A stretch of DNA of 64,000 nt, taken from positions 6,019 through 70,018 of the forward strand of contig CAYTJA010000466.1 of the NCBI GenBank assembly GCA_964437835.1, read 5' to 3'. Both the position numbers and the translations under genes were made by a program. The first letter of the stretch is position 1. Each line of letters starts with the position of its first letter. The stretch comes from an uncultured Spirochaetales bacterium. GTDB taxonomy: Bacteria; Myxococcota_A; UBA9160; SMWR01. The notes beneath the pieces were generated by a model. The model had not been told where the DNA came from and ran no database searches. It worked only from the letters and a program-made list of their open reading frames with translations. Of this stretch, positions 4,473 through 54,792 are shown piece after piece.

Positions 4473-4580
4473 TCATGTCCTGCCAGCCTCTGTCTGGGGT
4501 CCAACCAAGTTGAATTGCAGTGATCGCCGTCTCGGTCATTGGACGGTGCATCTTCCCGCTGTCCACCCCGTGAGGTCAAC

Positions 4581-13194: not shown

Positions 13195-13301
13195 GGCCAG
13201 AGCTCGAGCCGCCGATCGCGCCGCTCGATCGCGAGCCGCATCGGGTGCAGCGCGAGCGCTGCTTGCATCGGGCGCGCGGCCGCGCGCGCTGCAGCTCGGG
13301 T

Positions 13302-15726: not shown

Positions 15727-16809
15727 GTGCGGATGGGTTGCGCGATCGTCGGAACAGCGCTCTTCGCGGGCGCCTTCGGGGCGCTGGTGTTCGGCAGCGG
15801 CGGCCCCGACGACGCCCGGGGAGCGGGCAATGCGTCTCGCAGCGCTGCCGCGCTCCGCGCTGCCGAAGCATCCGCGCCGCAATCGCGCCGAGCCCCGCTC
15901 GCTGCGCCGGGCTCCCGAGCCACGACCCGGCTGCCACGGATCCGCCCGGCAGCGGCAGCGCCGACCGCAGCCGCGCTGGCCTCGCGCGAGCAGCTCGAAG
16001 TCTGGAAGCGCCAGCTGCGCGACGGCGCGCGGCGCGAGGTCGTCGGGAACGCGGAACTCGCGCGAACGCAGGCCCGCCTGCGCTCGCTCGATGCGCGCGA
16101 GCTCGGCGCGCTGCGGGAGCTGATCGAGGCCAATGAACTCTCGGAAGCGTCCTCGGGACACGACCTCGACGACGGCGACGGCCGTTTCGAGCCGTGGGAG
16201 CTCGGCTTCCAGATCTGGGAGCACGGGCACCTGGTGCTGCTCGCGCTAGGTCCGGATCCCTACGCGAGCTACGGCTATGCGCTGCGCGCGCTGCCCGAGG
16301 CCGTCGCGGCCTTCGAGCGGCTCGAGCTGCTCGATCTCAGCGGCGGCGAGCTCGGGCAGCTGCCCGACGCGCTCGGCCGGCTAGCGCAGCTGCGCGAGCT
16401 GCGCCTCGCGCACAATCAGCTCGACGCCCTGCCCGAGAGCCTCGGAGAGCTGATCCAGCTCGAGCGCCTGGTGCTGAGCGCCAACCGGATCGAAGCGCTG
16501 CCCCGCTCGCTGCGCGGCCTCGAACAGCTCGAGGAGCTCTGGCTCGCGGACAATCCCCTCGCAGAGCTGCCGGCCGAGCTGCTGGAGCTGCCCGCGCTGC
16601 GCCAGCTCGACGTCTCGCAGTCGCTCGGCGCGGCGCAGCTGCCGCCCGAGCGCGGGCTGCGCGAGCTTCCGGAGGTCGCGCGCGCGGCGAGGCTCGAAGC
16701 GCTCTACGTCGCCGGAAACCGGCTGTGTGGCGCGGCCGTCTCCGCTGCCCGCTTCGACGGCTCGGCTCGCCCACTTCGCGGTCTCGGGCTGCAGCGCTGC
16801 GAAAGCTGA
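15727..16809 (+). CDS. leucine-rich repeat (LRR) protein with N-terminal hydrophobic segment
   Basis: 360-aa ORF. N-terminal CAIVGTALFAGAFGALVF. The C-terminal half is a run of LxxLxLxxNxLxxLP units (LELLDLSGGELGQLPDALGRLAQLRELRLAHNQLDALPESLGELIQLERLVLSANRIEALPRSLRGLEQLEELWLADNPLAELP...). Confidence 0.75.
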   Translation: MRMGCAIVGTALFAGAFGALVFGSGGPDDARGAGNASRSAAALRAAEASAPQSRRAPLAAPGSRATTRLPRIRPAAAAPTAAALASREQLEVWKRQLRDGARREVVGNAELARTQARLRSLDARELGALRELIEANELSEASSGHDLDDGDGRFEPWELGFQIWEHGHLVLLALGPDPYASYGYALRALPEAVAAFERLELLDLSGGELGQLPDALGRLAQLRELRLAHNQLDALPESLGELIQLERLVLSANRIEALPRSLRGLEQLEELWLADNPLAELPAELLELPALRQLDVSQSLGAAQLPPERGLRELPEVARAARLEALYVAGNRLCGAAVSAARFDGSARPLRGLGLQRCES

Positions 16810-16836
16810 ACGCATGCGCACCACACGAGTTGGCTG

Positions 16837-19800
16837 ATGGCGCGGCGCGGAAGACTCGTGCTCGAGCGCGGCCCCGAAGACGCGGTCGGCCTGCCCGCCT
16901 CGCTCGAGGCCGAGCGCCTGATCCTGGGCCGCGGCAGCGATTCCGACATTCGGCTCCCGGTCGCCGCGGTCTCGCGCGTGCACGCCGAGATCGTCTGGCA
17001 GGGCGAGCGCCTGATGCTGATCGCGCGCAGCACGACCAGCCCGACCGCGGTGAACGGCAGCAGCCTCGAGGGCTCGCGCGAGCTCGCGGACGGCGATCAG
17101 ATCGAGCTCGCGAACCAGGTGCTGCTGCGCGTCGAGCTGCCGCCGGCCGAGCCTGCGCGGGTGGCTGCGGATTCCGCCACGCTGGTGTTTGCCGCGCCGA
17201 CTCCGACTCCGGTGGCTCCAGCGCGCGCCCCGGTGGCGCCCGCAGCTCCGGCGGCGCCGGCGGCTCCTGCGGCGCCAGCAGCCCCTGCGACGCCCGCGCC
17301 CGTTGCGGCGCCAGCAGCGCCTGCGACACCCGTACCCGCTGCGCCGCCGGCAGCCCCTGCTAGGCCCGTACCCGCTGCGCCGCCGGCAGCTGCGGTCGCG
17401 GCTCCGGCAGCGGTCGCTCCGTCCCCCCCCGCCGCTGCGCCCGCGCCAGCCGCGGCGCCTGACGCGTTCAAGGGCCCCGCGCGCATCGCGATCGTCGGCG
17501 CGGGACCCGCCGGCATCGCCGCGGGGGTGCAGGCCGCCAAACGCGGCGTGCCTCACGTGCTGCTCGAGCGCGGCCGCCTGGCCGAGACGATCGAGCGCTA
17601 CCAGAAGGGCAAGTTCGTGATGGACGAGCCCACCCGGCTCACGCTGCATCCCGAGCTCGAGGTCGGCTTCAAGGCCGGCGCGCGCGAGGAGATCCTCGCG
17701 ACCTGGCAGAAGGCCGTGTCGCAGGCCGGAGTCGAGCTGCGCTGCGGGCGCGAGTTCGGGGTCCAGGAGATCCGCGGGCAGCGGGGGGCCTTCGAGCTCG
17801 TGTTGCGCGGTGGCGAGCGAATCCAGGCCACCCACGTGGTGCTCGCGATCGGGGTGCAGGGCAATCTCAAGAGCTTCGGCGTCGCAGGCGACGATCTGCC
17901 CCACGTCACCTATCAGCTCGACGACCCAGCCGCCTACGAGGGCAAGCGCGTCGCGATCGTCGGCGTCGGCGACGCCGGGATCGAGAACGCGCTCGCGCTC
18001 GCGCAGCACGACAACGACGTCTTCATCGTGAACCGGCGCGACGAGTTCGCGCGCGCGAAAGCGCGCAACCGCGCGCTCGTCGATGCCGCGATCAAGAGCG
18101 GCCAGATCGCGCACTACACCCACAGTACGGTCGACCACTTCGAGCCCGGCGCGGTCGTGCTGCGCCGCAAGGAAGGTCAGGAGCGCCTCGAGCTCGACCT
18201 CGTGATCGGCCGCCTCGGCGGAAACCCGCCGCGCGACTTCCTGCAGGGCCTCGGCGTGCAGTTCGCGTCGGAAGATCCCGAGGCCGTGCCCGAGCTCTCG
18301 CCGAGCTACGAGACGAACGTTCCGGGCATCTTCGTGATCGGCGCGCTCGCGGGCTACCCGCTGATCAAGAACTGCATGAACCAGGGCTTCGAGGTCGTCG
18401 AGCACATCCTCGGCCAGCCCGTCACCCCGGCCGACGAGCCGCTGTTGCGCGAGAAGTTCAAGGGCATTCCGGGCAGCGTCAGCGAGATTCTCGAGCGCAT
18501 CCGCCGCCGCGTGCCGGTGTTCCGCGATCTCACGCCGGTCCAGCTGCGTGAGTTCTTGTTCGAAGCGGAGGTGAAGCAACTGAAAGCTGGCGAGGTCGTC
18601 TACCGCCGCAACGACTACACCAACGAGTTCTACGCGGTGCTCGCGGGCAAGGTCGCGCTCGAGGAGCCCTCCCTGGAACGCGACGTCGACGTCGGGCGCA
18701 CGATCGCGTTCACGCGCACGCTGCTCGCACAGGACATCCAGGGCTACCGGCGCGAGGTGCCGATCGGCGGCTTCTTCGGCGAGACCGAGCTCTTCTCGGG
18801 TCGGCGTCGCAGTGCGACGGCCACCGCGCTCGAGCCGACCCTCGTCATCGAGGCGCCGCGCCTCTCGATGGCGCGGCTGCTGCAGTCGACTCCGGCCGTG
18901 CAGCGAGCCGTGGATGCGGTGTTTGTCGAGCGCACGCTCGAAAAGCGCCTGCCCGAGCTCTCCGCGGCCGAGCGCGCGGCGCTCGCGGCTGCGGCCGAGA
19001 TCCGCCACTACCCCCCCGATCAGGTGATCTTCAAGGAAGGCGACGCGCCGGACGGTCTGCACCTGATCCGGCGTGGGTCGGTCGCGATCCAGCGCGTGGT
19101 CGACGGCCGCGAGCGCGTGATGCAGTACCTGCAGACCGGCGCGTGGCTCGGCGTGATGGGCGTGCTGTCGCCGGAGCTCGGCCGCCGAGCATCGGTGCGC
19201 GCGAAGGTGCTGACCGAGACGCTGCTGCTGCCGCAAGCCGCGCTGCTGCCGCTGCTCAAATCGAACCGCGCGCTGCGCGAGGGGCTCCAGCGCTGCGCGA
19301 ACGAGGACGCCGTCTGGGACGCCATGCAGGCCGAGGGCGGCGGCGGAACGATGCTCTTCATTCTCGACAAGACCGGGGCCTTCGAGGCCACCGACCTGCT
19401 GCTGATCGACGAGTCGCTCTGCATCCGCTGCGACAACTGCGAGAAGGCCTGCGCGGACACGCACCTCGGCCTCTCGCGCCTCGATCGCGAAGCCGGGCCG
19501 ACCTATCAGACCTCCGGCGGCGCGCAGCTGCACGTGCCGACGGCCTGCCAGCACTGCGAGAACCCGAAGTGCATGGAGGACTGCCCACCCGACGCGATCC
19601 GCCGCCACGCGAACGGCGAGGTCTACATCAAGGACAACTGCATCGGCTGCGGCAACTGCAAGAACAACTGTCCCTACGGCGTGATCCAAATGGCGACGGT
19701 CGAGCCGTATCGGAAGGCGAACCTGCTGGCTCAGCTGCTGCTCGGCAGCAGCCCGAAGCGCGGCGGCGGCGCGCACGCCGAAGGCGAGGCGCACTCCGAA

Positions 19801-19947
19801 GCCGCGGTGAAGTGCGACCTCTGCCAGGGGCTGCCCGCGCCGAAGCGCGGCGGCACGCGCGCGGCCTGCGTCGCGGCCTGCCCGACCGGAGCGATCGTGC
19901 GCGTCGAGCCGCGCAACTTCATCGCCGAGCTGGTCAAAGGGCGTTGA
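16837..19947 (+). CDS. multidomain redox/signalling protein: FHA, Pro/Ala linker, FAD/NAD(P) pyridine-nucleotide-disulfide-oxidoreductase-like domain, 2x cyclic-nucleotide-binding domain, 4Fe-4S ferredoxin clusters
   Basis: 1036-aa ORF. FHA (LILGRGSDSDIRLPVAAVSRVHAEIVWQG...INGSS-type). IAIVGAGPAGIAAG and VAIVGVGDAGIENA dinucleotide folds. cNMP motifs GGFFGETELFSGRRRSATATA and FKEGDAPDGLHLIRRGSV. Cys clusters CIRCDNCEKAC, CQHCENPKCMEDCP, CIGCGNCKNNCP, CDLCQG...CVAACP. Confidence 0.85.
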   Translation: MARRGRLVLERGPEDAVGLPASLEAERLILGRGSDSDIRLPVAAVSRVHAEIVWQGERLMLIARSTTSPTAVNGSSLEGSRELADGDQIELANQVLLRVELPPAEPARVAADSATLVFAAPTPTPVAPARAPVAPAAPAAPAAPAAPAAPATPAPVAAPAAPATPVPAAPPAAPARPVPAAPPAAAVAAPAAVAPSPPAAAPAPAAAPDAFKGPARIAIVGAGPAGIAAGVQAAKRGVPHVLLERGRLAETIERYQKGKFVMDEPTRLTLHPELEVGFKAGAREEILATWQKAVSQAGVELRCGREFGVQEIRGQRGAFELVLRGGERIQATHVVLAIGVQGNLKSFGVAGDDLPHVTYQLDDPAAYEGKRVAIVGVGDAGIENALALAQHDNDVFIVNRRDEFARAKARNRALVDAAIKSGQIAHYTHSTVDHFEPGAVVLRRKEGQERLELDLVIGRLGGNPPRDFLQGLGVQFASEDPEAVPELSPSYETNVPGIFVIGALAGYPLIKNCMNQGFEVVEHILGQPVTPADEPLLREKFKGIPGSVSEILERIRRRVPVFRDLTPVQLREFLFEAEVKQLKAGEVVYRRNDYTNEFYAVLAGKVALEEPSLERDVDVGRTIAFTRTLLAQDIQGYRREVPIGGFFGETELFSGRRRSATATALEPTLVIEAPRLSMARLLQSTPAVQRAVDAVFVERTLEKRLPELSAAERAALAAAAEIRHYPPDQVIFKEGDAPDGLHLIRRGSVAIQRVVDGRERVMQYLQTGAWLGVMGVLSPELGRRASVRAKVLTETLLLPQAALLPLLKSNRALREGLQRCANEDAVWDAMQAEGGGGTMLFILDKTGAFEATDLLLIDESLCIRCDNCEKACADTHLGLSRLDREAGPTYQTSGGAQLHVPTACQHCENPKCMEDCPPDAIRRHANGEVYIKDNCIGCGNCKNNCPYGVIQMATVEPYRKANLLAQLLLGSSPKRGGGAHAEGEAHSEAAVKCDLCQGLPAPKRGGTRAACVAACPTGAIVRVEPRNFIAELVKGR
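17269..17390 (+). repeat. degenerate 36-nt (12-codon) tandem repeats encoding the Pro/Ala linker
   Basis: Exact 26-nt direct repeat CCCGTACCCGCTGCGCCGCCGGCAGC at 17329-17354 and 17365-17390. Related units GCGGCGCCAGCAGC(C/G)CCTGCGAC start at 17269 and 17305. Period is 36 nt. Confidence 0.7.
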
Positions 19948-19949
19948 GC

Positions 19950-20999
19950 GTGGCCGTGGCCTTCGACCCGCTGATGCGACTTCGCGCGCGCGACCGCCGC
20001 CGGCTCGCAAGCGGCCTCGGGCTGGGCCTCGCGCTGGGCCTGGCACTCTGCGTGGCCGGCTGGCCCGGCACCGGCGTCAGCCTCGCGGGCTTCTGCGCCG
20101 CGAGCGGCCTCGGGCTCGGCTGGGCCAACTGGCCGCAGTGGCGCAAGGCCGCCTGGTGGCGCGGCCGCGGCGGCCTGCCGAAGAGTTACGCCCCCCGCAG
20201 CTTCCTGCGCTACGGGAACTTCCTGCACCTGAAGCTCGCGCTGACTGCCGTGGCCGCCGCCTCGCTCGCCTATCTCCTCGACGACCCGCCCGGAGGTCCC
20301 AGCGGGGGCAGCGCCCTCGGCTATGCGCTCGGGGTCTTCTCGACCGCGTTGGTCGTCTGGCTGCTCTGGTTCGGCGTGCGCAAGCGGCGCTACGACGGCG
20401 GCGGCGCGCCGCTGCAGGCCTGGCTCTCCGGCCACGTCTACCTCGGCCTGACGCTGCTCGTGCTGGTGCCGCTGCACTGCGGCTTCCAGTTCGGCTGGAA
20501 CGTGCACTCGCTGGCCGGAGCCCTGCTGTTCCTGACGCTCGTCTCCGGGATCTTCGGGCTCGTGGCCTACACGCAGATTCCCGCGCGCATGACGCGCAAC
20601 CGTCCCGGTCAGCAGCTCGAGGGCCTGCTGCAGCAGGTCGCCGATATCGACGAGCAGCTGCGCGCCGAGGCGCGCGAGCTGCGCAATGCCGAGCCCGTGC
20701 GGCGCGCGATCGAAGAGACCCGGATCGGTGGCGGCCTCGCGGCGCTGCTCTTCTTCTCGGAGGCGAATTGCGCGACCACGCAGGCGCAGGCCGCGCTGAA
20801 GCGCGCGCGCGACGACGACCCCGGTCTGCTGCGCCCGCTCGAGCTGCTGACGACCAAACAGGCGATCCTGCGCCGCGTGCGGCGCGACCTGCGCTACAAG
20901 GCGCTGCTCGACCTATGGCTCGTGCTGCACGTGCCGCTCTCGCTCGCGTGCGTGGCTGCGGTTGCAGTGCACGTGCTCGCGGTCTTCTACTACCGGTGA
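19950..20999 (+). CDS. polytopic membrane protein with two H-x13-H transmembrane helices (di-haem cytochrome-b-like)
   Basis: Track ORF 19143..20999 trimmed to GTG 19950 (alternative ATG 19974), 3 nt after the upstream stop. About 7 hydrophobic helices. GHVYLGLTLLVLVPLH and LHVPLSLACVAAVAVH each place two His exactly 13 residues apart. Confidence 0.65.
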   Translation: MAVAFDPLMRLRARDRRRLASGLGLGLALGLALCVAGWPGTGVSLAGFCAASGLGLGWANWPQWRKAAWWRGRGGLPKSYAPRSFLRYGNFLHLKLALTAVAAASLAYLLDDPPGGPSGGSALGYALGVFSTALVVWLLWFGVRKRRYDGGGAPLQAWLSGHVYLGLTLLVLVPLHCGFQFGWNVHSLAGALLFLTLVSGIFGLVAYTQIPARMTRNRPGQQLEGLLQQVADIDEQLRAEARELRNAEPVRRAIEETRIGGGLAALLFFSEANCATTQAQAALKRARDDDPGLLRPLELLTTKQAILRRVRRDLRYKALLDLWLVLHVPLSLACVAAVAVHVLAVFYYR

Positions 21000-21002
21000 C
21001 AC

Positions 21003-22841
21003 ATGCGACTGCGCCTGATCCAGGTCACGAGGCGGAAGTCCGGGCGCGAGTCGCGGCGCGAGTCGCAGCTCGAGGGCGAGCTGCTCGCACTCGGGCGCGG
21101 CTCCGACTGCGACCTCGAGCTCGTCGACCTGTCCGTCGCGCTCCGGCACGCGGAGCTGTTGCGCAAGGGCGATGGCGTGTACCTGCGGCCGGTCGGCCGC
21201 AGCGAGCTCAGCGTCTCGGGCCAGCGCTGCGTCGGCGAGCGGCGACTCGCGGTCGGCGATGTGGTGCGCATCGGTCCCTTCGAGCTGCGCGCGATCGCGG
21301 CCGAGGCCGGATTCGATCTCGCGCTCGAAGTCGAACAGATGGCGCGCCGCGAGGACGCGCGCGGCGAGCTCGCCAAGCGCAGCCGCCTGACGGTCGAGGG
21401 GGGATGGTTCTCGCGCCGCACGCTCTCCTTTGCCGGCGTCGCGGTGGTGCTGCTCGGCTTCCTCGTGCTGCCGCTCGCGCTCGGGCGCGCGGGCTCCTGG
21501 AGCAGCGGGCCCCTCTCCCACAAACACTCGTTCGCGGCCGATGACTGCGGCGAGTGCCACACGCGCGCGTTCGCCACCGTCGAGAACGGCGCCTGCCTCG
21601 ACTGCCACGCGGAGATCGGCAACCACAGCGACTCCCCGGCGCTCGCAGCCGCCGGCATGACCGGGGCCGCCTGCACCGACTGCCACAGCGAGCACGCGGG
21701 CGAGCCCGGTCTGCTCGCGCGCGCGCAGGACAGCTGCGCGGGCTGCCACACGGATCTCTCGCAGCGGCTCGAGCAGCCGCGCGTCGCGAATGCGAGCGAC
21801 TTCGCTGCGGACCACCCCGAGTTCCAGCTCGCGATGCTCGACCCCGCCACGCGCAAGGCGACCCCCGTCGGCTGGCAGCGGGATCTCGAGGAGCGCTCCG
21901 GCGTGGCCTTCTCACACGCGCGGCACGTCGGTGAAGCATTGCCCGAGGTGCCGGAGCGCCTGCGCAGCGACCCCGCGCGCAAGAGCGAGCCGCTGCGCTG
22001 CTCGAGCTGCCACCAGCTCGAAGCGGGAGGCCAGCGCATGCAGCCGATCGAGTTCGAGAAACACTGTCAGGCCTGCCACCAGCTCGGCTTCGACGCCGCG
22101 CTGCCGGACGACCAGGCGCCGCACGCGAAGCCGGTCGAGCTGCGCGAGGGGCTGCGCAGGCTCTACGCCGCGCAGGTGGTCGCGGGCAATGCGGCCGCGG
22201 TCGCGCTGCCGGAGGCGCTGCGCTTCCGGATCCCCGGCTCGACGCTCTCGGACCAGGAACAGTCGCAGGCGCAGGGCTTCGTCGACGCCCGCGTCCGGCG
22301 CGCCGAGCACGCGCTCTACGTCGAGCCCGGCGAGTGCGCGCGCTGCCACGCGCTCGAGCGCGACGCGCCGGCTGCGAGCGAAGAGAGCGGAGCGGGCGAA
22401 GCGTCCCTGGCCAAGCCGCCGAGCGTTCCGCCGGTCTATATCACCGAGCGCTGGATGCCGCAGTCGATGTTCCGGCACGCGACGCACGCGCCCTTCCCCT
22501 GCGCGGACTGCCACCCGGCCGCGGCGGCCTATCTCGAGGGCGGCGACGCCGAGAACCCGCGCCCCGAGTGGTCGCTGCCGGAGGCCGGGCCCTTTGCCCT
22601 GCGCACAGAAGCCGAGCTCCAAGAGCTCGGGCTGACGCCCAGCAAGCTGGCGTCCGACCTGCTGATTCCCGGCATCGAGCAGTGCCGCGGCTGCCACGGC
22701 GGCGAGAATGCGCGGCCGCCCGAGGTGGCCTCCGAGTGCAGCCTCTGCCACCGCTTCCACCGCGCCGAGCACGGGCCGATGCAGCCGGGCGGCGCGGCGC
22801 GGCCCTCGCCGGTGGCCCGCAACGCGGCGCACTCGGACTGA
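21003..22841 (+). CDS. FHA domain - single TM - decahaem c-type cytochrome
   Basis: 612-aa ORF. N-terminal FHA-like LALGRGSDCDLELVDLSVALRHAELLRKGDGVYL. TM helix LSFAGVAVVLLGFLVLPLAL. Ten CxxCH motifs: CGECH, CLDCH, CTDCH, CAGCH, CSSCH, CQACH, CARCH, CADCH, CRGCH, CSLCH. Confidence 0.85.
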   Translation: MRLRLIQVTRRKSGRESRRESQLEGELLALGRGSDCDLELVDLSVALRHAELLRKGDGVYLRPVGRSELSVSGQRCVGERRLAVGDVVRIGPFELRAIAAEAGFDLALEVEQMARREDARGELAKRSRLTVEGGWFSRRTLSFAGVAVVLLGFLVLPLALGRAGSWSSGPLSHKHSFAADDCGECHTRAFATVENGACLDCHAEIGNHSDSPALAAAGMTGAACTDCHSEHAGEPGLLARAQDSCAGCHTDLSQRLEQPRVANASDFAADHPEFQLAMLDPATRKATPVGWQRDLEERSGVAFSHARHVGEALPEVPERLRSDPARKSEPLRCSSCHQLEAGGQRMQPIEFEKHCQACHQLGFDAALPDDQAPHAKPVELREGLRRLYAAQVVAGNAAAVALPEALRFRIPGSTLSDQEQSQAQGFVDARVRRAEHALYVEPGECARCHALERDAPAASEESGAGEASLAKPPSVPPVYITERWMPQSMFRHATHAPFPCADCHPAAAAYLEGGDAENPRPEWSLPEAGPFALRTEAELQELGLTPSKLASDLLIPGIEQCRGCHGGENARPPEVASECSLCHRFHRAEHGPMQPGGAARPSPVARNAAHSD

Positions 22842-22925
22842 CATTATCGGTCTCGCGACACCACCGCCTCTCCACCCCCGCGAACTGATAGAGTGGCGTT
22901 CGGGGGGAGTAAAGGTGGCGCCGAT

Positions 22926-23570
22926 ATGCAGACTCGAGTCGTGGCGCTATTCGCTGCTCTCATGCTCGCCCCGCTCCAGAGCTCGGCCGGTTCCGGTGGA
23001 GTCGTCACCTTCGGAGGTAGCTCAACACCGGAAGGCTGCACAGGCGGCAACTGCCATCCGGAAGGCAGCCCGGGCTTGACGACTCAGCTCAGCGGTCCCG
23101 GCTCCGTATCGATCGGCACCTTGAATCAATACACGATGAGCGTGGCAGGGGTGACAGCGCTTCAGTTCTGCGGAATCAATATCGCAGCGGACAGCGGCAG
23201 CCTGATGGCGGCCCCACCTTGGACCCAGAAGTACATCTTCTCCGACCAGTTGACGCACACGCAACCGACTCAACCCTGCAGCTTCACATTCGGCTGGGTG
23301 GCACCTGGAACGCCCGACACCTATTACCTCCGCGCGACGGCCGTGGCGGGGAATTCGAATGGCAACCGACGCGACGACACCGCAGTTCCGCTCAACGCAT
23401 TTCCCATCACCGTGCTGCCGGAGCCGAGCCCAAACATGCTGCTGGCAATCGCGGTCGCCACGCTGACCCTTGCCTCGGGCGGTCGTGCCCCCGAGCAGCG
23501 TCCGCTCAGAAGGACACGTCGGCGCCGATGGTCCACAGCACATCGGGGCGCAAGCCATTCTGGCGATTGA
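22926..23570 (+). CDS. secreted protein with CX4CH motif and PEP-CTERM-like C-terminal anchor
   Basis: Track ORF 22893..23570 trimmed to ATG 22926 (signal peptide MQTRVVALFAALMLAPLQSSAG). CTGGNCH motif. C-terminal LPEPSPNMLLAIAVATLTLA followed by an Arg cluster. Lies in a lower-G+C patch. The last 65 nt overlap the convergent OMP gene. Confidence 0.5.
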   Translation: MQTRVVALFAALMLAPLQSSAGSGGVVTFGGSSTPEGCTGGNCHPEGSPGLTTQLSGPGSVSIGTLNQYTMSVAGVTALQFCGINIAADSGSLMAAPPWTQKYIFSDQLTHTQPTQPCSFTFGWVAPGTPDTYYLRATAVAGNSNGNRRDDTAVPLNAFPITVLPEPSPNMLLAIAVATLTLASGGRAPEQRPLRRTRRRRWSTAHRGASHSGD

Positions 23571-24858: not shown

Positions 24859-24907
24859 TTCCCCGAACCGCGGCTCCGATGAGGCCTGGCTTCGGCATTC
24901 GAGCGAT

Positions 24908-27301: not shown

Positions 27302-27574
27302 CGAAGTACCCGGAAGCGCCTGCTGCAGCGCCCTGCGCCACCGCCATCAGCGGCGACGCTAGCCAGGAATAGGGGCCTCCTCGCCACGATCAAAGTAACC
27401 CACGGCGAGGCCCGGCGGCGAGAAGAGTTCGAGGAACCCACCTCGATGCGTCCGCCGACATTCCGCTTCCATTCGCAGCGAGCGGGTGTCTAGAATCGCC
27501 GCGGCTGCGGGGACCGGTTAGGAGCATCGACCATCGGCCAGCGCGAAGCATCGCCCGGCGAAGCAAGGACTCGA

Positions 27575-31824: not shown

Positions 31825-31837
31825 GGCCGATCCACAC

Positions 31838-34800
31838 ATGAAGCTCGCGTTTCCGCTCACGACCGCCCTCGCCGCCGCACTGCTCGCGGCGGTCGCGGCA
31901 GGCGCAGCCGAAGGAGAGGCGCCGCGCGAGATCGCCTATCCGAGCACCCCACCCGCGCCCGAGCACCAGGACAGCGCGCAAGCGGAGGCCAAGAGCGCGG
32001 GCTGCCGCAGCTGCCATACCCCGATGGACGAGGCGAGCATGCACGCGACGCCGGGCGTCGAGCTCGGCTGCAGCGACTGCCACGGCGGAAATGCCGAGAC
32101 CGCGCGCCCCGCGCAGAGTTTTCCGGGCGGCCGCGCCTACGAAGAGGCCAAGGCGCGCGCGCACGTGCAGCCGCGCTATCCGCACGCGTGGGGCCTCGAC
32201 GAGGAGGGGCGGCGTGTCGGCCCGCAGCCGGTGCGCGCCTACACGCTCTACAACCGCGAAGCACCGGAATTCATCCGCTTCGTGAACCCGGGCGACCTGC
32301 GCGTGGCCGAGGAAGCCTGCGGCGCGTGCCACGCGGAGATCGTGCAGGCGAACCGGCGCAGCCTGATGGCGACCGGCGCGATGCTCTGGGGAGGAGCCTC
32401 GTACAACAACGGGATTCTTCCCTTCAAGCGCTACGTGCTCGGCGAGGCCTACACGCGCGACGGTCAGCCGGCCGCGATCGAGAGCCGCTTCGAAATCAGC
32501 CCCGAGCTCGCGAAGCGCGGCGTGCTGCCGCGCTTCCTGCCGCTGCCCGCCTGGGAGACGATCCCTCCTATGGACAACTTCCGCGTCTTCGAGCGCGGCG
32601 GCAAGTTCAACGTTTCGCAGTTCCCGGAGATCGGTCTGCCCAAGTCGCAGGACGATCCCGGCAAGCCCGACATCCGCCAGAGCAACCGCGGCGAGGGCAC
32701 CGGCGCGCGCATCGCGGTGCCCGCGCTGAACATCCACAAGACGCGCCTCAACGATCCCTTGCTGTGGTTCCCCGGCACGAACGACAACCCCGGCGACTTC
32801 CGCGCCTCGGGCTGCAGCGGCTGCCACGTCGTCTACGCGAACGACCGCGAGCCGCTGCACTCGGGCCTCTACGCGGCCGCCGGGCACCAGGGCCAGTCCC
32901 AGAGCGCCGACCCGACGATCGCGGAGCGGCTGAACGCCAGCGGCCACAAGGAGTCCGGCCACCCGCTGAAGCACGCCTTCACGCGCGCAATTCCGACCGC
33001 GCAGTGCATGACCTGCCACATGCATCAGCCGAACATGTTCGTGAACTCCTACCTCGGCTACACGATGTGGGACTACGAGGCCGATGCGCCGCTGATGTGG
33101 CCGAAGCAGCAGGCCTACCCCTCCATCCCGGAGATGCACGAGCGCCTCGAGCGCAACCCCGAGGAGGCGAACATCCGTGGCCTCTGGGGAGACCCCGAAT
33201 TCCTCTCCCGCGTCTGGGACGACGTAAACCCGCAGGCGCGCGACACGCAGTTTGCCGACTATCACGGCCACGGCTGGAACTTCCGCGGCGTGTTCAAGCG
33301 CAACCGCAAGGGCGCGCTGCTCGACGCGAAGGGCGAGACGATCCCCGACGACCTGCCGCCCAAGCAGAAATGGCAGCGAGCGGTCCACCTGCGCGACATC
33401 CACGTCGAGTACGGGATGCAGTGCTCGGACTGCCACTTCGCACAGGACTCGCACGGCGACGGCTTCCTGAAAGGGGAGGTCGCGGCCGCGGTCGAGATCG
33501 GCTGCGCGGACTGCCACGGCACCAGCCGCGCGCGGCCGACGCTGCGCACATCGGGCCCCGCGGCACCGCCGGGCGGCAACGACCTCAGCTTCTTGCGCAA
33601 CGCGGATGGCGGCGCGCGCTTCGTCTGGCGCGGCGAGCGCTTGTACCAGCGCCTGGTCCTGCCGCCGCACACAGAGATCGAAGTCACGCAGGTGATCGAC
33701 ACCGTGACCAGGGGCCATCCGGCCTACAACGCCAAGGCCGCGCGCGCGAAGACCCTCGAGCGCGGGCCCGGCCAGCGCTGGGGCGAGGCGGCTTCGGGTT
33801 GCGAACGCGCGCACGACGACGAGAAGCTGGCCTGCTTCAGCTGCCACTCGTCGTGGGTCACGAGCTGCGGCGGCTGCCACCTGCCGATCCAGGCCAACTG
33901 GAAGACCGAGCGCCACCACTACGAGGGCGGCGAGACGCGCAACTTCGCGACCTACAACCCGCAGGTCGCGCGCGACGAGATGTTCCAGCTGGGCGTCCAC
34001 GGCGAGGCGAAAAACGGCATCATCGCGCCGGTGCGCTCGTCCTCGGCGCTGGTGCTCTCGTCGACCGACATCAACCGCAACCGCATCTACCAGCAGCAGC
34101 CGCCGGTCTCGGCCGGCGGTTTCAGCGCGCAGGCCTTTGCGCCGCACTTCCCGCACACGGTGCGCAAGACCGAGACCAAGACCTGCACGGACTGCCACGT
34201 CTCGCAGCGCAACGACAACAATGCGCTGATGGCGCAGCTGCTGCTGCTCGGCACGAACTTCGTGAACTTCACCGGCTACAACGCGTGGGTCGGAGGCGAG
34301 CGCCATCTCTCCGCGATCCAGGTCACCGAGTGGGACGAGCCGCAGGCCGTACTCGGGAGCTACCTGCACCGGTACGCCTATCCCGACTGGTTCGCGGAGC
34401 ACGAGGCGCGCGGCCGCGAACTCACGCGGCCGAGCCCGGGCGCACTCGACGCGGACCCCGGCTGGGTCGCCTCGCTGCGGCGCTTCTTCCAGGGGAGCTT
34501 CGGAGGCCACGCGATCTACGACGGAACCTACGGCCACGGCTCGGGCCCGGTCGGCTGCCTGCAGCTGCGCGGCGAGTACCTCTACGCGGCCGAGGGCCCG
34601 CGCGGCATGCAGGCCTACGACGTCGCGTCGGTCGCGAACAAGGGCTTCTCGGAGCGCGTGGTCACGGCGCCCTTCTCGCCGCTGGGCCAGAACCTGCGCG
34701 TGAAGTCACGCAACGCGACTTGCGTTGCGCTGCCGACGACCCAGCCGATCCGCCCCGAGCGCAACCGCCAGGTTCGCGAGGCGTTTCCCGAGAACCTCGA

Positions 34801-35731
34801 GCAGGCGATGCACCCGATCTACAGCTATGCCGCGGTGACCGACTCCGAAGAGGGCCTGATCCTCGTGAACGTCGAGACCCTCGGCGACTTCGAGCCGCGC
34901 AACAACTTCTTCGAGCGCGCACTGACCTGGAATCCCGGCGGCCTGCTGGATGGCGCGCGGCATGCGCACTTCGCGGGGCACCTGCTCTACGTCTCGGCCG
35001 ACACCGGCATCATCGTCGTCGACCTGAACGACCCGCTGCAGCCGAAGGCGCTCGCGCGGATCCCGCTGATCAAGCCGCGCGCGTCGATGCAGCAATTCCG
35101 CTACCTCTTCGCGGTCGACCTCGAGGGTTTCAAGGTCGTCGATGTGACGAACCCCGCCGCACCGCGCCTCCTGCCCGGCTCGAGCGTGCGCCTCGCCGAC
35201 GCGCGGCGCGTCTTCGTCTCGCGCACCTACGCCTACGTTGCCGCGGGCCGCGAGGGTCTCGTGATCATCGACGTCGAGCGCCCCGAAGAGCCGCGCATCG
35301 CGCAGCGCTTCGACGCGGGCGGCCAGCTCTCCGACGCGCGCGACGTGATCGTCTCGACGACCAACGCCTCGCTCTTCGCCTACGTCGCCGACGGCGTGAA
35401 CGGCCTCAAGGTGCTGCAGCTGACTTCGCCCGAGAGTCAGCCGCGCCTCTACGGCTTCAGCCCCGAGCCGAAACCCGAGCTGATCGCGTGGCGCAAGACT
35501 GCCTCCCCGGCGCTCTCGCTCTCGCGCCCCCTCGAACGCGACCGCGCGGTCGACGAGACCGGCCACCAGATCGCGGTCTTCGGCCGCGTCGGCTCGCGGC
35601 CCTTCGACCTCGAGGAGATGCAGCAGCTGTATCTCGGCGACGACGAGCGCGTCTGGACCGTCGAGGACGAGGAATCCATCCCGAGCGCTGCGCGGGCGAG
35701 CGGCGGACCCCGCGATCGCTGCCCGCCCTGA
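31838..35731 (+). CDS. secreted decahaem c-type cytochrome fused to a C-terminal LVIVD-repeat (beta-propeller-like) region
   Basis: 1297-aa ORF with a signal peptide. Ten CxxCH motifs: CRSCH, CSDCH, CGACH, CSGCH, CMTCH, CSDCH, CADCH, CFSCH, CGGCH, CTDCH. C-terminal repeats: GLILVNVETL, GIIVVDLNDPLQP, GFKVVDVTNPAAP, GLVIIDVERPEEP, GLKVLQLTSPESQP. Confidence 0.85.
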   Translation: MKLAFPLTTALAAALLAAVAAGAAEGEAPREIAYPSTPPAPEHQDSAQAEAKSAGCRSCHTPMDEASMHATPGVELGCSDCHGGNAETARPAQSFPGGRAYEEAKARAHVQPRYPHAWGLDEEGRRVGPQPVRAYTLYNREAPEFIRFVNPGDLRVAEEACGACHAEIVQANRRSLMATGAMLWGGASYNNGILPFKRYVLGEAYTRDGQPAAIESRFEISPELAKRGVLPRFLPLPAWETIPPMDNFRVFERGGKFNVSQFPEIGLPKSQDDPGKPDIRQSNRGEGTGARIAVPALNIHKTRLNDPLLWFPGTNDNPGDFRASGCSGCHVVYANDREPLHSGLYAAAGHQGQSQSADPTIAERLNASGHKESGHPLKHAFTRAIPTAQCMTCHMHQPNMFVNSYLGYTMWDYEADAPLMWPKQQAYPSIPEMHERLERNPEEANIRGLWGDPEFLSRVWDDVNPQARDTQFADYHGHGWNFRGVFKRNRKGALLDAKGETIPDDLPPKQKWQRAVHLRDIHVEYGMQCSDCHFAQDSHGDGFLKGEVAAAVEIGCADCHGTSRARPTLRTSGPAAPPGGNDLSFLRNADGGARFVWRGERLYQRLVLPPHTEIEVTQVIDTVTRGHPAYNAKAARAKTLERGPGQRWGEAASGCERAHDDEKLACFSCHSSWVTSCGGCHLPIQANWKTERHHYEGGETRNFATYNPQVARDEMFQLGVHGEAKNGIIAPVRSSSALVLSSTDINRNRIYQQQPPVSAGGFSAQAFAPHFPHTVRKTETKTCTDCHVSQRNDNNALMAQLLLLGTNFVNFTGYNAWVGGERHLSAIQVTEWDEPQAVLGSYLHRYAYPDWFAEHEARGRELTRPSPGALDADPGWVASLRRFFQGSFGGHAIYDGTYGHGSGPVGCLQLRGEYLYAAEGPRGMQAYDVASVANKGFSERVVTAPFSPLGQNLRVKSRNATCVALPTTQPIRPERNRQVREAFPENLEQAMHPIYSYAAVTDSEEGLILVNVETLGDFEPRNNFFERALTWNPGGLLDGARHAHFAGHLLYVSADTGIIVVDLNDPLQPKALARIPLIKPRASMQQFRYLFAVDLEGFKVVDVTNPAAPRLLPGSSVRLADARRVFVSRTYAYVAAGREGLVIIDVERPEEPRIAQRFDAGGQLSDARDVIVSTTNASLFAYVADGVNGLKVLQLTSPESQPRLYGFSPEPKPELIAWRKTASPALSLSRPLERDRAVDETGHQIAVFGRVGSRPFDLEEMQQLYLGDDERVWTVEDEESIPSAARASGGPRDRCPP

Positions 35732-35755
35732 TCGCGCGCCCGCGGGCGCGCGGGA

Positions 35756-37093
35756 TCACAGCAATTTGCGCAGCTTCTCGAACGCCGCCGAGGCGCGCGC
35801 GCGGTCGTAGTTTTCGGGATTGTCGAGCTGCTCTGCGAATTTCAGCGCCGCGTCGATCAGGGAGCCGGCCCGCTGCGCCGAAAGCGCGCCCTGCTGCCGC
35901 AGGTTGTCGGCCAGCGCCTGAACCGCGAGCGCGGCCTGCTCGGCCGCGGCGTAGTCGAGATATTCGCCCGAGGCGCCCTCGGCGAGCAGGCTGTCGAGCA
36001 CGCGCCGGATCGCGGCGGCGTCTGGCTTCCACGCGTCGAGGGTCGCGATCGCGGTCTGCAGGCGAGCCAGCATCCGCTGCGCGGCCTGTTGCGCCTCGGC
36101 CGGCCCTTTCGCGGTGGCCTGGTGCAGCGCGCGGAGCTCGCCGCGCAGCGCTTCGGCCTGCTCCGGCGCGGCTGCAACCAGCCCGTGCCGCAGCATCAGG
36201 AAGCTCGCGTCGGAGAGCCGCGGGACGCCGGGCCCGAGGCCGGTGCTCGCGCGCGCGCGCCAGCGGGCCTCGCTCATCGGGTGGTGACAGGCGTGGCAGT
36301 CGAATAGCACCAGCTCGGGCCAGACGCCGTCGTGCCCGCGCCCCGCGTCCAGGAACAGCTCGAGCAGCCGCCGGGCCGCGACCGCCTGCCCGATCGCCCA
36401 GAACTGCGCGCCCTCGGCCGCGCGCTTCCCGCGCGGCGGGTAGCGCTTCGCCGTCGTCTCGGAGTCGAAGTGCGCGGGCTGGGTCAGCGAGAAGACCTGC
36501 AGCTCGAAGCTGATGCGCGGATGGCCCGCGCCCATCAGGCGATGGCCGACGAGCTTGTCGCGCGTGCCGATGTGGCAGGAGCTGCAGAGCTCGGCACGCA
36601 GCAAGGGATCGTCGGTCGGGTACATCCCGTCGCGCAGATTGTCTGCGCGGGAGCGGCCCGAATCGTGCGGCTTCAGCCAGCCCTCGCTGCCGCCGTGACA
36701 GGCCTCGCAGCCGACGCCGCCCGCGAGATCGAACTTCGCGCCGCGGCGCTGCGCGGGCACATGATCCGCATGGCAGTCGAGGCAGAGCGCCGACTCGTGC
36801 GCCGCCCCGATCCCGAGGCTCGCGGCGATCTGCTTGGATTTCTGGTCGAAGAGGTGCTGATAGGCCTTCGCGTGCTGATCTTCCTGCTTCCAGAGCGTGT
36901 ACTCGCTCTGCCAGACCGCTCCCTTGCCGGGCCCGAGCTTGCCGTGACAGGGCGCACCCGCGCAGGACGCGACGCCTTCGTGGCGCTGCCCGTCGGCCTG
37001 CGGAAGCACCGGCTGCGCCGCGACCGCAGCCGCGCAGAGCGCGCCGCACGCGGCCCTGCCACAGAGCGCCCCGAGCTCGCGAATCCCGATCAC
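35756..37093 (-). CDS. multihaem c-type cytochrome (cytochrome c554-like family)
   Basis: 445-aa ORF with a signal peptide. CAGAPCH (CX4CH) plus CLDCH, CEACH, CSSCH, CHACH. Helical C-terminal half. Confidence 0.8.
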   Translation of the reverse strand: MIGIRELGALCGRAACGALCAAAVAAQPVLPQADGQRHEGVASCAGAPCHGKLGPGKGAVWQSEYTLWKQEDQHAKAYQHLFDQKSKQIAASLGIGAAHESALCLDCHADHVPAQRRGAKFDLAGGVGCEACHGGSEGWLKPHDSGRSRADNLRDGMYPTDDPLLRAELCSSCHIGTRDKLVGHRLMGAGHPRISFELQVFSLTQPAHFDSETTAKRYPPRGKRAAEGAQFWAIGQAVAARRLLELFLDAGRGHDGVWPELVLFDCHACHHPMSEARWRARASTGLGPGVPRLSDASFLMLRHGLVAAAPEQAEALRGELRALHQATAKGPAEAQQAAQRMLARLQTAIATLDAWKPDAAAIRRVLDSLLAEGASGEYLDYAAAEQAALAVQALADNLRQQGALSAQRAGSLIDAALKFAEQLDNPENYDRARASAAFEKLRKLL

Positions 37094-37240
37094 GCGCGGA
37101 ATCCTACACCCCCGATCCGAGACCCGGGCGCCCCTCTCGAGGACAGGGAAGCACGCTTTCAGTGCCCGTGAATCCCCTCAAGCCCGGGGGACGATCCCCG
37201 ATACAGAGGGACCTTTCCAGCACGCAGGAGCTTCGCCCCG

Positions 37241-38761
37241 ATGCAGACTCCGGAGGCCCTCCTCGCCAAGCTGCTCGAGCGCGCCGACACGCTGCCCTCG
37301 GTGCCCGCGGTCGCGGCCGAGGTGATGCGCGTCTCGCAGCGCGAGGACTGCAGCATAGACGCGCTGGTGCGCGTGATCTCACTCGACCCCGTGCTCTCGG
37401 GCCGACTGCTCAAGCTCGCGAATTCCTCGGCGGCGGGAAACCGCACGCCGGTCACCCAGCTCTCGCGAGCCGCGATGCTGCTCGGCATGCGCTCGGTCAA
37501 GCTGATGGCGCTCAGCTGCTCGATCGTGTCCGCATTCCCGCAGGACGGTCGCGGCGCCGTCGACCTGCGCGCGCTCTGGCGGCGCAGCGTCGTCCGAGCG
37601 GTTGCCGCGCGCGCGTTTGCGCTGCACCGGAAATCGCCGCTCGCGGACGAGGCCTTTCTGTGCGGCCTGCTCTCGCAGCTGGGCCGCCTCGTGCTCTCGC
37701 AGACCCTTCCGAAGCGCTACGCCGAGGTCGTCCAGCGCGCCGCCGGCGCGTGGCCGAGCGCCGACGACGAGCGCGCTGTCTTCGGCTTCGATGGCGCGGC
37801 GGTAGGTGCGGCGCTGCTGCGTCACTGGTCGCTGCCGGAGCTGCTCTGCGATGCGATCCAGTGCGCTAGCCAGTTCCCGGCCACGCCTGCGAAAGCAGAG
37901 CCGCAGGTCATCGAGCTCGCGCAGCTGGTGCAGCTCGCCGCACACTGTGAAGAGCTCGTCTGCGGACGCGACGCGGCCGCGGCGATGGAAGCTCTCCAGG
38001 AGTTCGCGGAGAGCGAGCACGGGATCGACGCACAGACGCTCGAGAGCCTGCTGCTCGACCTCGAGAGTGGAATCGCGGAGACCGCCGACGCGCTCGAGCT
38101 GCGCGTGCAGAGCGTCCGCATGCAGGAGGTCCTGGAAGCGGCGCAGCAGCAGATCGCTCGCGAGAGCCTGCACCTGGCCTCTGAGCTCGCAGGGCTGCAT
38201 CAGTACAGCGAGACGCTCGAGCGCAAGACCCACGAGCTCGGGGAGCGCGCCACCACCGACGCGCTCACCGGCATCCCGAACCGGGCCTGCTTCGACGCAT
38301 TCCTGCAGCGCTGCATGGACGAAGCCGCACTTGCGAGCCGGCCGCTGCCCTTCGGCATCCTGATGCTCGACGTCGACCACTTCAAGCGCGTCAACGACAG
38401 CTACGGCCATCCCATCGGCGACGAAGTCTTGAAGCTCGTCGCACAGACGCTGCGCAAGGCGATCCGCGGCAGCGAGATCAGCGCGCGTTACGGCGGAGAG
38501 GAATTCGCCGTCGCGTTGCAGTGCAGTCGCCCGGGTCTGGAGATTGCCGCTGAGCGCCTGCGCGGCGCAATCGAGAACGCGAAGCTGCAGGCCGAGGCAG
38601 CGACGATCTCGGTCACCGTGAGTATCGGCGGAGCCTGTGTCGAAGACTTGCGCAGCGCCGACGCGGCACTGCTGATGCAGCGCGCCGACCGCTGCCTCTA
38701 CGCGGCCAAGCACTCCGGGCGCAACCGCGCGGTGGTCCAGCTCGCTTCGGCGGACGAGTAG
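37241..38761 (+). CDS. HDOD domain - GGDEF diguanylate cyclase
   Basis: 506-aa ORF. HDOD-like LPSVPAVAAEVMRVSQRED...LVRVISLDPVLSGRLLKLANS. GGDEF domain with DALTGIPNR, DVDHFKRVNDSYGHPIGD, RYGGEEFAV. Confidence 0.85.
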   Translation: MQTPEALLAKLLERADTLPSVPAVAAEVMRVSQREDCSIDALVRVISLDPVLSGRLLKLANSSAAGNRTPVTQLSRAAMLLGMRSVKLMALSCSIVSAFPQDGRGAVDLRALWRRSVVRAVAARAFALHRKSPLADEAFLCGLLSQLGRLVLSQTLPKRYAEVVQRAAGAWPSADDERAVFGFDGAAVGAALLRHWSLPELLCDAIQCASQFPATPAKAEPQVIELAQLVQLAAHCEELVCGRDAAAAMEALQEFAESEHGIDAQTLESLLLDLESGIAETADALELRVQSVRMQEVLEAAQQQIARESLHLASELAGLHQYSETLERKTHELGERATTDALTGIPNRACFDAFLQRCMDEAALASRPLPFGILMLDVDHFKRVNDSYGHPIGDEVLKLVAQTLRKAIRGSEISARYGGEEFAVALQCSRPGLEIAAERLRGAIENAKLQAEAATISVTVSIGGACVEDLRSADAALLMQRADRCLYAAKHSGRNRAVVQLASADE

Positions 38762-40243: not shown

Positions 40244-40251
40244 GGCAAGCG

Positions 40252-53402: not shown

Positions 53403-54770
<1,368 letters not shown>

Positions 54771-54792
54771 TCGGAGCTGAGGGAGATCGCGT

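Follow-up and report, generated by a model that had tools for sequence, protein, structure and literature searches.

Does a contiguous run of redox and signalling genes encode one regulated route for carrying electrons from the cytoplasm to the cell surface, or does a smaller system lie within it? The question is raised by a 64,000-nucleotide stretch of DNA from an uncultured bacterium (GenBank contig CAYTJA010000466.1; hereafter the window), in which a block of ~23 kb (15727-38761) combines multihaem cytochromes, flavin and iron-sulphur (FeS) domains and outer-membrane barrel candidates with FHA, Ser/Thr kinase and cyclic-nucleotide-binding (cNMP) domains. An earlier note on this DNA had read the entire block as a single extracellular-electron-transfer conduit that reached the surface by way of two barrels and a PEP-CTERM haem protein and was gated by kinase, FHA, cNMP, leucine-rich-repeat (LRR) and GGDEF domains. 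Scans with Pfam, NCBIfam and motif searches recovered every redox and signalling signature that it listed, and its multihaem counts of 10, 10 and about 5 correspond to ten CxxCH motifs each in genes G4 and G10 and to four CxxCH plus one CX4CH in G11. Synteny nevertheless supports seven of the twelve genes in the block as one system and not the other five (G1, G5, G6, G7, G12). The seven (G2, G3, G4, G8, G9, G10 and G11) are a conserved core, clustered far above chance, and the model favoured here, held to be modestly probable as a whole, is that they form an NAD(P)H-fed, cyclic-nucleotide-gated input module and an outer-membrane-associated terminal module.

All coordinates are positions in the window. 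Since the window is ~70% G+C, raw lists of open reading frames consist mostly of shadow frames; genes were called from GC content by codon position (third position, GC3), which yielded 12 genes within the block, and the window proteins were scanned against Pfam and NCBIfam. The gaps along G1-G2-G3-G4 measure 27, 26 and 3 nt, the G8 stop overlaps the G9 start by 4 nt, and 13 nt separate G9 from G10. The block as a whole comprises at least five transcription units spread over both strands, and its interpretation as a single operon was rejected on that ground. An Rfam scan of the window at gathering thresholds returned no match, with no riboswitch upstream of the operons, and a promoter and terminator scan of the window gave background level only.

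The evidence that delimits the core comes from tblastn comparison of all 12 window proteins with fetched loci, the main counts being drawn from 46 loci with sufficient flanking sequence for which G9 had served as the only anchor. Homologues of G8 and G10 are present in all 46, those of G2, G3 and G4 each in 44, and that of G11 in 39; the complete set of seven occurs in 37. Homologues of G1, G5, G6 and G12 are found in none, and G7 has a match in one locus, judged to be a chance kinase match. The co-occurrence that the earlier note proposed to look for among the FHA-flavoprotein, the H-x13-H membrane protein, the FHA-cytochrome and the barrel-cytochrome genes is thus borne out, with the kinase falling outside it. 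Gene order varies among loci while the gene set is kept: G2 may come first or last, G11 may lie on either side, and the modules are sometimes convergent. Chance juxtaposition of the core genes is excluded by this conserved synteny. A genome scan with the G9 alignment found matches in at least 591 species of four phyla, and the cluster is spread across Alpha-, Beta- and Gammaproteobacteria, Myxococcota and one Verrucomicrobium. Cultured carriers among the matches listed are Parahaliea, Sediminihaliea, Undibacterium and Hyphococcus, and a protein search added a G9 homologue from cultured Oceanibacterium hippocampi.

Closely related loci show what the block looks like when pared down. The closest (L001, 63% identity in G4) has the order LRR, G2, G3, G4, G8, G9, G10, with G8 following G4 directly across a gap of 78 nt and G5-G7 missing between them. 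Relatives at 46%, 34% and 27% G4 identity retain G2, G3, G4, G8, G9 and G10, and one from a farmland metagenome (L003) carries a G11 homologue too. Genes G5-G7 (22926-27301) are an insertion at the G4/G8 junction, outside the conserved system: they are absent from L001, L002 and, save for the chance G7 match, from the other loci, their GC3 is 0.71-0.81 compared with 0.89-0.93 in the core genes, and they lie on the opposite strand or form a unit of their own. No flanking repeats were found around the insertion. These observations bear most heavily on the conduit of all ~12 genes. That reading draws on the presence and adjacency of all the domains concerned, on a Ser/Thr kinase placed within a cluster that bears two FHA-type domains, and on the canonical GR...SRxHA...NG residues of the G2 FHA domain; the distribution of genes among the loci has already largely refuted it, the foreign composition of G5-G7 also counts against it, and it is regarded as extremely unlikely.

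The set is also modular, as indicated by loci in which the input module stands alone or is detached from the output module. The two are apart in L004, L056 and L064, the halves in L004 (a Caulobacter metagenome-assembled genome, MAG) being separated by genes for a CHASE2-type cyclase and a metallophosphoesterase, and L088 has the input module without an adjacent output module. The stand-alone G2-G3-G4 of L088 includes a G4 with an extra SH3_3 domain and sits between a MIP-channel/cNMP-binding fusion and a GAF-GAF-PAS nucleotide cyclase (3702-4847 and 12095-14362 of that locus), another link to cyclic nucleotides.

The entry point of the input module is G2 (16837-19947, +; 1036 aa), a protein in which no signal peptide was detected. 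From its N-terminus it comprises an FHA domain (Pfam E 6.8e-12), a Pro/Ala linker, an FAD/NAD(P) domain (Pyr_redox_3, 3e-29), two cNMP domains (cNMP_binding, 3.7e-31) and a 4x[4Fe-4S] domain. The flavin domain is of the Pyr_redox_2/3 type, nearest in PDB sequence matches to YpdA/Bdr and TrxR-type reductases, and is devoid of CxxC; the cNMP domains match CRP in the PDB, and the FeS domain, with four Cys clusters, matches HycB, NrfC and FdnH. The flavin, both cNMP and the FeS domains are kept in 59-60 of 60 G2 homologues (two cNMP domains in 59, a fused flavin domain in all 60), and the FHA domain is present in only 6 of the 60, Myxococcota-type proteins of at least 978 aa. In the favoured model, G2 would oxidise NAD(P)H at its TrxR/YpdA-like FAD domain and pass the electrons onward through up to four [4Fe-4S] clusters. 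A tRNA-Ser(cga) called by ARAGORN inside G2 (19443-19513, -) is probably a false positive, since its 71 nt fall short of the length of a class II tRNA-Ser and since it sits in the conserved G2 reading frame.

Passage across the inner membrane is assigned to G3 (19974-20999, +; a GTG at 19950 is a possible alternative start), for which five or six transmembrane (TM) helices are predicted. Two of them carry the pairs H154-x13-H168 and H319-x13-H333, and all four of these His residues, together with H178, are invariant in 68 homologues from the loci and 20 from databases. The window protein has no Pfam match at E<=0.01. Weak matches to Ni_hydr_CYTB, to which the di-haem cytochromes b FdnI and HyaC belong, were obtained with 19 of 20 family members (best E 5.7e-8), further weak matches lead to Ferric_reduct and DUF4405, and one homologue is labelled 'Ferric reductase like transmembrane component' in UniRef. 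An AlphaFold2 model (predicted local distance difference test score, pLDDT, 76) has five helices at its core and, on the cytoplasmic side, a helical insert of ~90 aa. G3 is therefore described as a putative di-haem cytochrome b, with two b haems, ligated by the H-x13-H helices, as the predicted path of electrons through the membrane.

On the periplasmic side, ten bis-His c haems of G4 (21003-22841, +) would accept these electrons, tethered by a single TM helix. G4 has an N-terminal FHA/YscD-like domain, the one TM helix and 10 CxxCH motifs; the ten motifs are kept in 68 of 70 homologues, and a further ten conserved His residues, the presumptive distal ligands, give the pattern of a bis-His wire. 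Because c haems are attached in the periplasm, the N-terminal FHA-like domain must lie in the cytoplasm. The family is large, with 1978 clusters at 50% identity in a full hidden Markov model (HMM) scan (E<=1e-30) whose top matches are full length; the 13 proteins returned by an initial word-indexed search proved to be a sensitivity artefact by comparison. The relay to the output module is likely to be the periplasmic c554-like cytochrome G11 (35756-37093, -), which has four CxxCH motifs and CAGAPCH (CX4CH), a set kept in 52 of 53 homologues, and which matches Pfam Cytochrome_C554 (2.6e-9) and PDB 1bvb (E 0.005). The leg from cytoplasm through inner membrane to periplasm that the earlier note had proposed therefore has the right parts in the right topology, with G2, G3 and G4 kept together among the loci.

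The same proteins carry the domains by which the module may be controlled. Within G2 the cNMP domains separate the flavin domain from the FeS domain, and there they would gate electron flux on cAMP or cGMP, and the first of them has a canonical phosphate-binding cassette (GE...RSA), FGETELFSGRRRSATA. The phosphopeptide-binding residues of the G2 FHA domain are all canonical (LGRG...VSRVHAE...VNGS). In G4 of the window the FHA-like domain has the Arg and His, with the canonical Ser replaced by Ala and the Asn by Ser; among 66 homologues these positions are kept at 85% (Arg), 23% (Ser), 58% (His) and 52% (Asn), and in Pfam the G4 N-terminus scores at least as well against the YscD-type FHA fold. 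Within 10 kb of the cluster, Ccm haem-maturation genes occur in 20 loci, PP2C phosphatases and FHA proteins in 9 each, and CHASE2- or GAF-type nucleotide cyclases and metallophosphoesterases in 8 each. One locus (L087) has G2-G3-G4-G8-G9-G10-G11, a PP2C and two FHA genes in that order on one strand. The recurrence of cyclase, PP2C and FHA neighbours makes second-messenger and Ser/Thr phospho-control a recurrent theme. The gating by cyclic nucleotides and phosphorylation that had been proposed earlier divides accordingly: cyclic-nucleotide control of the cluster is plausible from the near-universal cNMP domains, and a phospho-Ser/Thr link is plausible from the recurrent PP2C and FHA neighbours, while the kinase of the window is an inserted gene and the G2 FHA domain is rare. 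Ser/Thr phospho-signalling would then be a lineage-specific extra control, exerted through FHA domains and, elsewhere, PP2C partners.

So much signalling apparatus invites the reading that the core is mainly a redox sensor or signal transducer, in which the redox state of the haems is relayed through the FHA-like domain of G4 and the cNMP domains of G2. Two core proteins contain signalling domains of their own, the neighbourhood repeatedly includes cyclases, PP2C and FHA proteins, and HbpS, namesake of the domains in G8, is a component of an extracellular redox-stress sensor in Streptomyces. The inventory of 25 c haems, two b haems, four FeS clusters and one flavin, however, far exceeds the needs of a sensor; cNMP-binding domains receive signals and do not send them; and the conserved core has no DNA-binding, kinase or cyclase output domain. 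A sensing role as the main function is very unlikely.

The output module opens with G8 (27575-29635, +), a lipoprotein (lipobox LASC) with tandem HbpS-like (GlcG/DUF336) domains, matched by Pfam in three stretches (2e-25); its nearest solved relatives in the PDB are EfgA, PduO-C and HbpS. At its N-terminus (27640-27700) a C-x-G-x-C motif follows directly after the lipobox Cys in most, not all, of 14 homologues inspected, and could be a disulphide or metal site.

G9 (29632-31824, +; start at 29620 in the public annotation) encodes the predicted barrel. It has no Pfam match, Alginate_exp included, and a profile of its family against PDB sequences found nothing at E<=1. The family exceeds 5662 clusters at 50-70% identity across phyla, has ~130 invariant residues, which is unusual for a porin, and includes one homologue named 'Alginate export domain-containing' in UniRef. 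An AlphaFold2 model shows 18 long antiparallel strands with a barrel pLDDT of 70-85, and in the lineage of the window an extra N-terminal AMIN-like sandwich domain is present. In a Foldseek search the best match of the model was AlgE (E 1e-14, TM ~0.6 on target), followed by OprD/Occ channels and MOMP, with no MtrB among the top 50 PDB folds. Of the two large outer-membrane barrels in the earlier note, G9 is thus upheld by its model, and the second, G6, is a small barrel candidate with a sub-threshold match only. Between strands 13 and 14 of G9 lies an acidic segment of ~70 aa (residues ~563-633; 31320-31530), modelled with low confidence and nearly invariant across phyla, GDxDPxDD...GFDAIFENP...SKEEGQSNFVNPG; it could be a plug in the lumen or a cation-binding loop.

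G10 (31838-35731, +; 1297 aa) is a decahaem c-type cytochrome with a C-terminal LVIVD beta-propeller. Ten CxxCH motifs are kept in 71 of 76 homologues, identity across phyla is 55-67%, and 498 of 1297 columns (38%) are at least 90% conserved. The ten haems are distributed over ~830 residues before the propeller, in a protein with about one haem per 130 residues, and include a small N-terminal di-haem segment (C56, C78). Inspection of the N-termini of G10 and 14 homologues found a Sec-type signal and no lipobox Cys. Searches of PDB sequences gave nothing at E<=1; weak matches were obtained to ExtM (3.9e-20, 72 bits against a cut-off of 800) and to an MtrC domain (E 0.12), and no match to Cytochrom_C552/NrfA appeared even at E<=5. 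The strong conservation of G9 and G10 and the low haem density of G10 suggest an enzyme-like complex more than a generic nanowire.

In the two-module model, G8, G9 and G10, which would be translationally coupled, form an outer-membrane-associated complex of lipoprotein, 18-strand barrel and decahaem-propeller protein, and G11 delivers electrons to it. G10, placed at the mouth of G9 or on its periplasmic face, would be the terminal reductase and would act on a small acceptor that enters through the barrel, such as a metal ion, a metal chelate or an oxidant based on oxygen or nitrogen; the system would not be a long-range, mineral-respiring wire. As far as could be found, this three-gene module is undescribed in the literature.

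The principal competitor is a true porin-cytochrome conduit, in which the haem part of G10 (or G11 or G4) is inserted into G9, in the manner of a split Cyc2 or a small MtrAB, and serves extracellular Fe(III), Mn(IV), humics, electrodes or O2. A lipoprotein, a barrel and a multihaem protein do resemble the layout of Pcc and Ext clusters, and the ExtM and MtrC-domain matches of G10, although the former is far below its cut-off, point the same way. The unusual conservation of both G9 and G10 is what an intimate complex would lead one to expect, the small N-terminal di-haem segment of G10 is compatible with insertion, one full seven-gene carrier (L050, Haliea sp. 'Biocath_Gamma_022') is a MAG from a biocathode community, which may hint at interaction with electrodes, and extracellular electron transfer has been proposed for the sibling ptd cluster by its authors (bioRxiv 10.1101/2023.11.21.568154). 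Set against these are the 18 strands and AlgE/OprD fold of G9, compared with 26 strands in MtrB; a G10 that has no lipobox, unlike MtrC, OmcA and OmcB; the low haem density of G10; an NAD(P)H input with no quinol dehydrogenase, hence no service to respiration; and the fact that most carriers are aerobes. The passage of electrons across the outer membrane is unsupported by the features of G9 and G10, and the outer-membrane and surface leg of the original conduit is likewise unsupported, given the barrel type of G9, the missing lipobox of G10 and the place of G5 outside the system. Such a conduit is a possibility, though fairly unlikely.

Returning to the two-module model, its route from NAD(P)H would bypass the quinone pool, and the system is for that reason probably dissipative or assimilatory, not energy-conserving; the absence of energy conservation agrees with the tight regulation and with a role in assimilation, detoxification or signalling chemistry. 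Several points weigh against this model. What the analysis shows directly is domain content, topology, invariant ligands and conserved synteny; the direction of electron flow, the gating, the assembly of the complex and the acceptor are inferred. The carriers, mostly aerobes, have no known phenotype that calls for such a system. The phosphate-binding cassette of the second cNMP domain of G2 is degenerate (GVMG...RRASV, with the Glu lost). G3 of the window scores 12.3 bits against Ni_hydr_CYTB, where the Pfam threshold is 30.1, and its model has no match among PDB folds (best E 0.43), so that binding of haem b is read from the His pattern and the family-level profile matches. Phospho-Thr recognition by G4 is doubtful, as the canonical Ser is missing in most members and the Asn in about half. 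The overall confidence of the G9 model is low (pLDDT 58).

If the flow were reversed, the output module would take electrons from an extracellular or periplasmic donor (for example Fe(II), Mn(II), a cathode, or a sulphur or nitrogen compound in reduced form), and G11, G4 and G3 would pass them to quinone or, with G2 as the last step, to NAD(P)+. The resemblance of G11 to cytochrome c554, the acceptor of hydroxylamine oxidoreductase, suits this direction, cytochromes b of the Ni_hydr_CYTB type normally reduce quinones, and the biocathode Haliea MAG is again a carrier. Transfer to NAD(P)+, however, would be uphill for the common donors and against the membrane potential; the flavoprotein-FeS-cNMP fusion G2, conserved at 44 of the 46 loci, finds no place in a scheme that ends in quinone reduction; and no carbon-fixation or lithotrophy genes recur near the cluster. 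Inward flow is accordingly rated quite unlikely.

A bolder version of the export model would make the core a bacterial two-membrane counterpart of the eukaryotic NOX and ferric reductases, fuelled by NAD(P)H and gated by cAMP or cGMP, with electrons exported through G9 holding the haem part of G10 as a 'split Cyc2'. Aerobic heterotrophs of water and soil might use it for reductive acquisition of iron or manganese or to produce extracellular superoxide, and the input module might be a reusable 'power supply' that also serves ptd-type clusters. To our knowledge, the enzyme responsible for NAD(P)H-dependent extracellular superoxide production is largely unidentified. This version is unlikely, if less so than inward flow.

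The five genes outside the core are of several kinds. The LRR gene G1 (15727-16809, +; LRR_8, E 1.6e-14; N-terminal TM or signal segment) is a lineage-specific accessory, with homologues in the close relatives L001 and L002 only. G5 (22926-23570, +) matches the NCBIfam choice-of-anchor V model (2.9e-23) and contains one copy of a CX4CH motif (CTGGNCH) with no sign of haem. The PEP-CTERM-like surface protein of the earlier note is recognisable in this motif and in a C-terminus that, by eye, runs from PEPS through a hydrophobic and an Arg-rich stretch into an unusually long tail; no NCBIfam PEP-CTERM model matches even at E<=10, and G5 was rejected as a haem surface protein of the system, since it is not conserved with the cluster. 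On the same ground G6 (23506-24858, -; C-terminal Phe; Phenol_MetA_deg at 21.8 bits, below the cut-off of 22) was rejected as a second conduit barrel. G7 (24908-27301, -) is a receptor Ser/Thr kinase of the Hanks type with an HRD motif and a TM segment (Pkinase, 2e-35), and may be a local version of the recurrent Ser/Thr phospho-control. The HDOD-GGDEF diguanylate cyclase G12 (37241-38761, +; Pfam HDOD 1e-50, GGDEF 1e-42) is a bystander, associated with the cluster in none of 86 loci.

The site of the insertion appears to be a hot spot. In the window, the G4/G8 junction (22842-27574) holds a 4.7-kb low-GC3 insert, and in other loci (L015, 7561-8169, and 10 more; Rhodospirillaceae, SAR116) it holds an unrelated secreted open reading frame of ~150 aa. 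Just downstream of the block, at 39308-42423 (+), are genes for an aldo/keto reductase and a molybdopterin oxidoreductase (Fe4S4, Molybdopterin, Molydop_binding), neither associated with the cluster in other genomes. A transketolase gene lies within a few kb of the cluster both in the window (9650-11680, -) and in L003 (422-2479), and may be residual synteny between the two hosts. Farther downstream, 53403-63333 (+) encodes a sigma-54 activator (53403-54770) and flagellar export proteins: FliO/FliP (56823-57953), FlhB (59017-60105), FlhA (60087-62144) and an SRP54-type, FlhF-like GTPase (62149-63333). The cluster genes have their nearest named relatives in 'Myxococcota bacterium' MAGs, and that phylum usually lacks flagella.

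If the two-module model is true, many of the common aerobic Proteobacteria (Halieaceae, SAR116, Rhodospirillaceae, Caulobacterales, Burkholderiales, Lysobacterales) and Myxococcota hold an unrecognised route for export of electrons from NAD(P)H, one that does not pass through the quinone pool and has second messengers as its switch. It would bear on the means by which aerobes bring about extracytoplasmic reduction of iron, manganese or oxygen, on the post-translational control of multihaem systems, where it is unusual for electron carriers to contain cNMP and FHA domains themselves, and on the recombination of electron-transfer modules, the same type of input being joined to different terminal modules here and in ptd. 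The presence of the cluster in cultured strains of Parahaliea, Sediminihaliea, Oceanibacterium, Undibacterium and Hyphococcus makes these ideas directly testable.

Among known systems, the MtrCAB and Pcc (OmaB-OmbB-OmcB) complexes of Shewanella and Geobacter share with the core a single cluster containing a periplasmic decahaem protein, a barrel gene and a further multihaem protein, and the logic of a haem relay towards the outer membrane. The input differs, being NAD(P)H through flavin, FeS and cytochrome b here and quinol through CymA, ImcH or CbcL there, and no CymA/NapC, ImcH or CbcL homologues recur near the cluster. The G9 barrel has 18 strands and is AlgE-like, where theirs have 20-26; the distal cytochrome G10 has no lipobox and ends in a beta-propeller; and sequence similarity is insignificant (G4 scores 24.1 bits against the DmsE family, cut-off 192). 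Departing from these systems in three hallmarks (barrel size, lipoprotein outer cytochrome and quinol input), the cluster is placed among ptd-like, porin-cytochrome-like clusters. The Tenderiales uet cluster was considered as a match and found to be unrelated.

Individual parts of the core have better-known parallels. In Fre-MsrQ(YedZ), NOX and STEAP systems, a cytoplasmic NAD(P)H flavoprotein supplies electrons to two stacked b haems, which are bound by His pairs on two helices and carry the electrons through the membrane; the spacing in G3 is x13 on both helices. In FdnH-FdnI, an FeS partner of the HycB/FdnH type docks to a cytochrome b of the PF01292 type, and since the FeS domain of G2 is cytoplasmic, on the side opposite to FdnH, the arrangement can be pictured as 'FdnH-FdnI turned inside-out'. 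G3 differs from all of these in its own five-TM architecture and ~90-aa cytoplasmic helical insert, and its predicted periplasmic acceptor is a decahaem protein in place of a molybdoenzyme or O2. The 18-strand model of G9 superposes on AlgE, but identity is ~10%, the gene belongs to a redox operon and not to a polysaccharide or alg operon, and G9 further differs in its extremely conserved acidic loop and, in the window lineage, its AMIN-like domain. Cyc2, a fused cytochrome-porin, is an example of a small barrel that functions with one haem domain; G9 has no haem motif of its own.

The closest parallel, and the only similar system found in the literature, is the ptdABCDEFG operon of marine Alphaproteobacteria UBA11136 and others, described in a 2024 preprint (bioRxiv 10.1101/2023.11.21.568154). 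Nothing relevant was found in the literature searched that ties HbpS/DUF336 to multihaem proteins, FHA to multihaem proteins and cNMP, or LVIVD to cytochromes. The earlier note, in recognising no named system, was nearly right, but this sibling operon had been named. Its parts are PtdA, a pentahaem NrfA-family protein with a beta-sandwich; PtdB, a porin; PtdC, a flavohaemoprotein-like FAD/NAD(P) oxidoreductase; PtdD, a tetrahaem protein; PtdE, a cNMP/4Fe-4S protein; PtdF, a ferric-reductase-like membrane protein; and PtdG, a periplasmic decahaem protein (bioRxiv 10.1101/2023.11.21.568154). Its authors considered the operon undescribed and of unknown function, possibly in iron reduction or nitrogen cycling, and proposed a porin-cytochrome complex (bioRxiv 10.1101/2023.11.21.568154). 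No ptd host contig is among 80 loci compared here, and no PtdA-like or pentahaem family recurs near the cluster in 86 loci. By domain description only, PtdE, PtdF, PtdG, PtdD and PtdB resemble G2, G3, G4, G11 and G9, respectively, and the FAD/NAD(P) part of PtdC resembles the flavin domain of G2; a set of the PtdE-F-G type has its architectural counterpart in the adjacent G2-G3-G4 of 44 of 46 loci, and both clusters are widespread and uncharacterised. PtdD, with four haems, and G11, with four CxxCH and one CX4CH in a c554-like protein, are compared by description alone. The differences lie in the separate flavohaemoprotein-like reductase PtdC, where a TrxR/YpdA-like domain is fused into G2 here; in the tandem HbpS-like lipoprotein G8, absent from ptd; and in the terminal protein, a pentahaem NrfA-family cytochrome in ptd and a decahaem-LVIVD protein here. 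By analogy, ptd is best seen as a sibling operon, with an input module that reads as equivalent to G2-G3-G4 but a different output.

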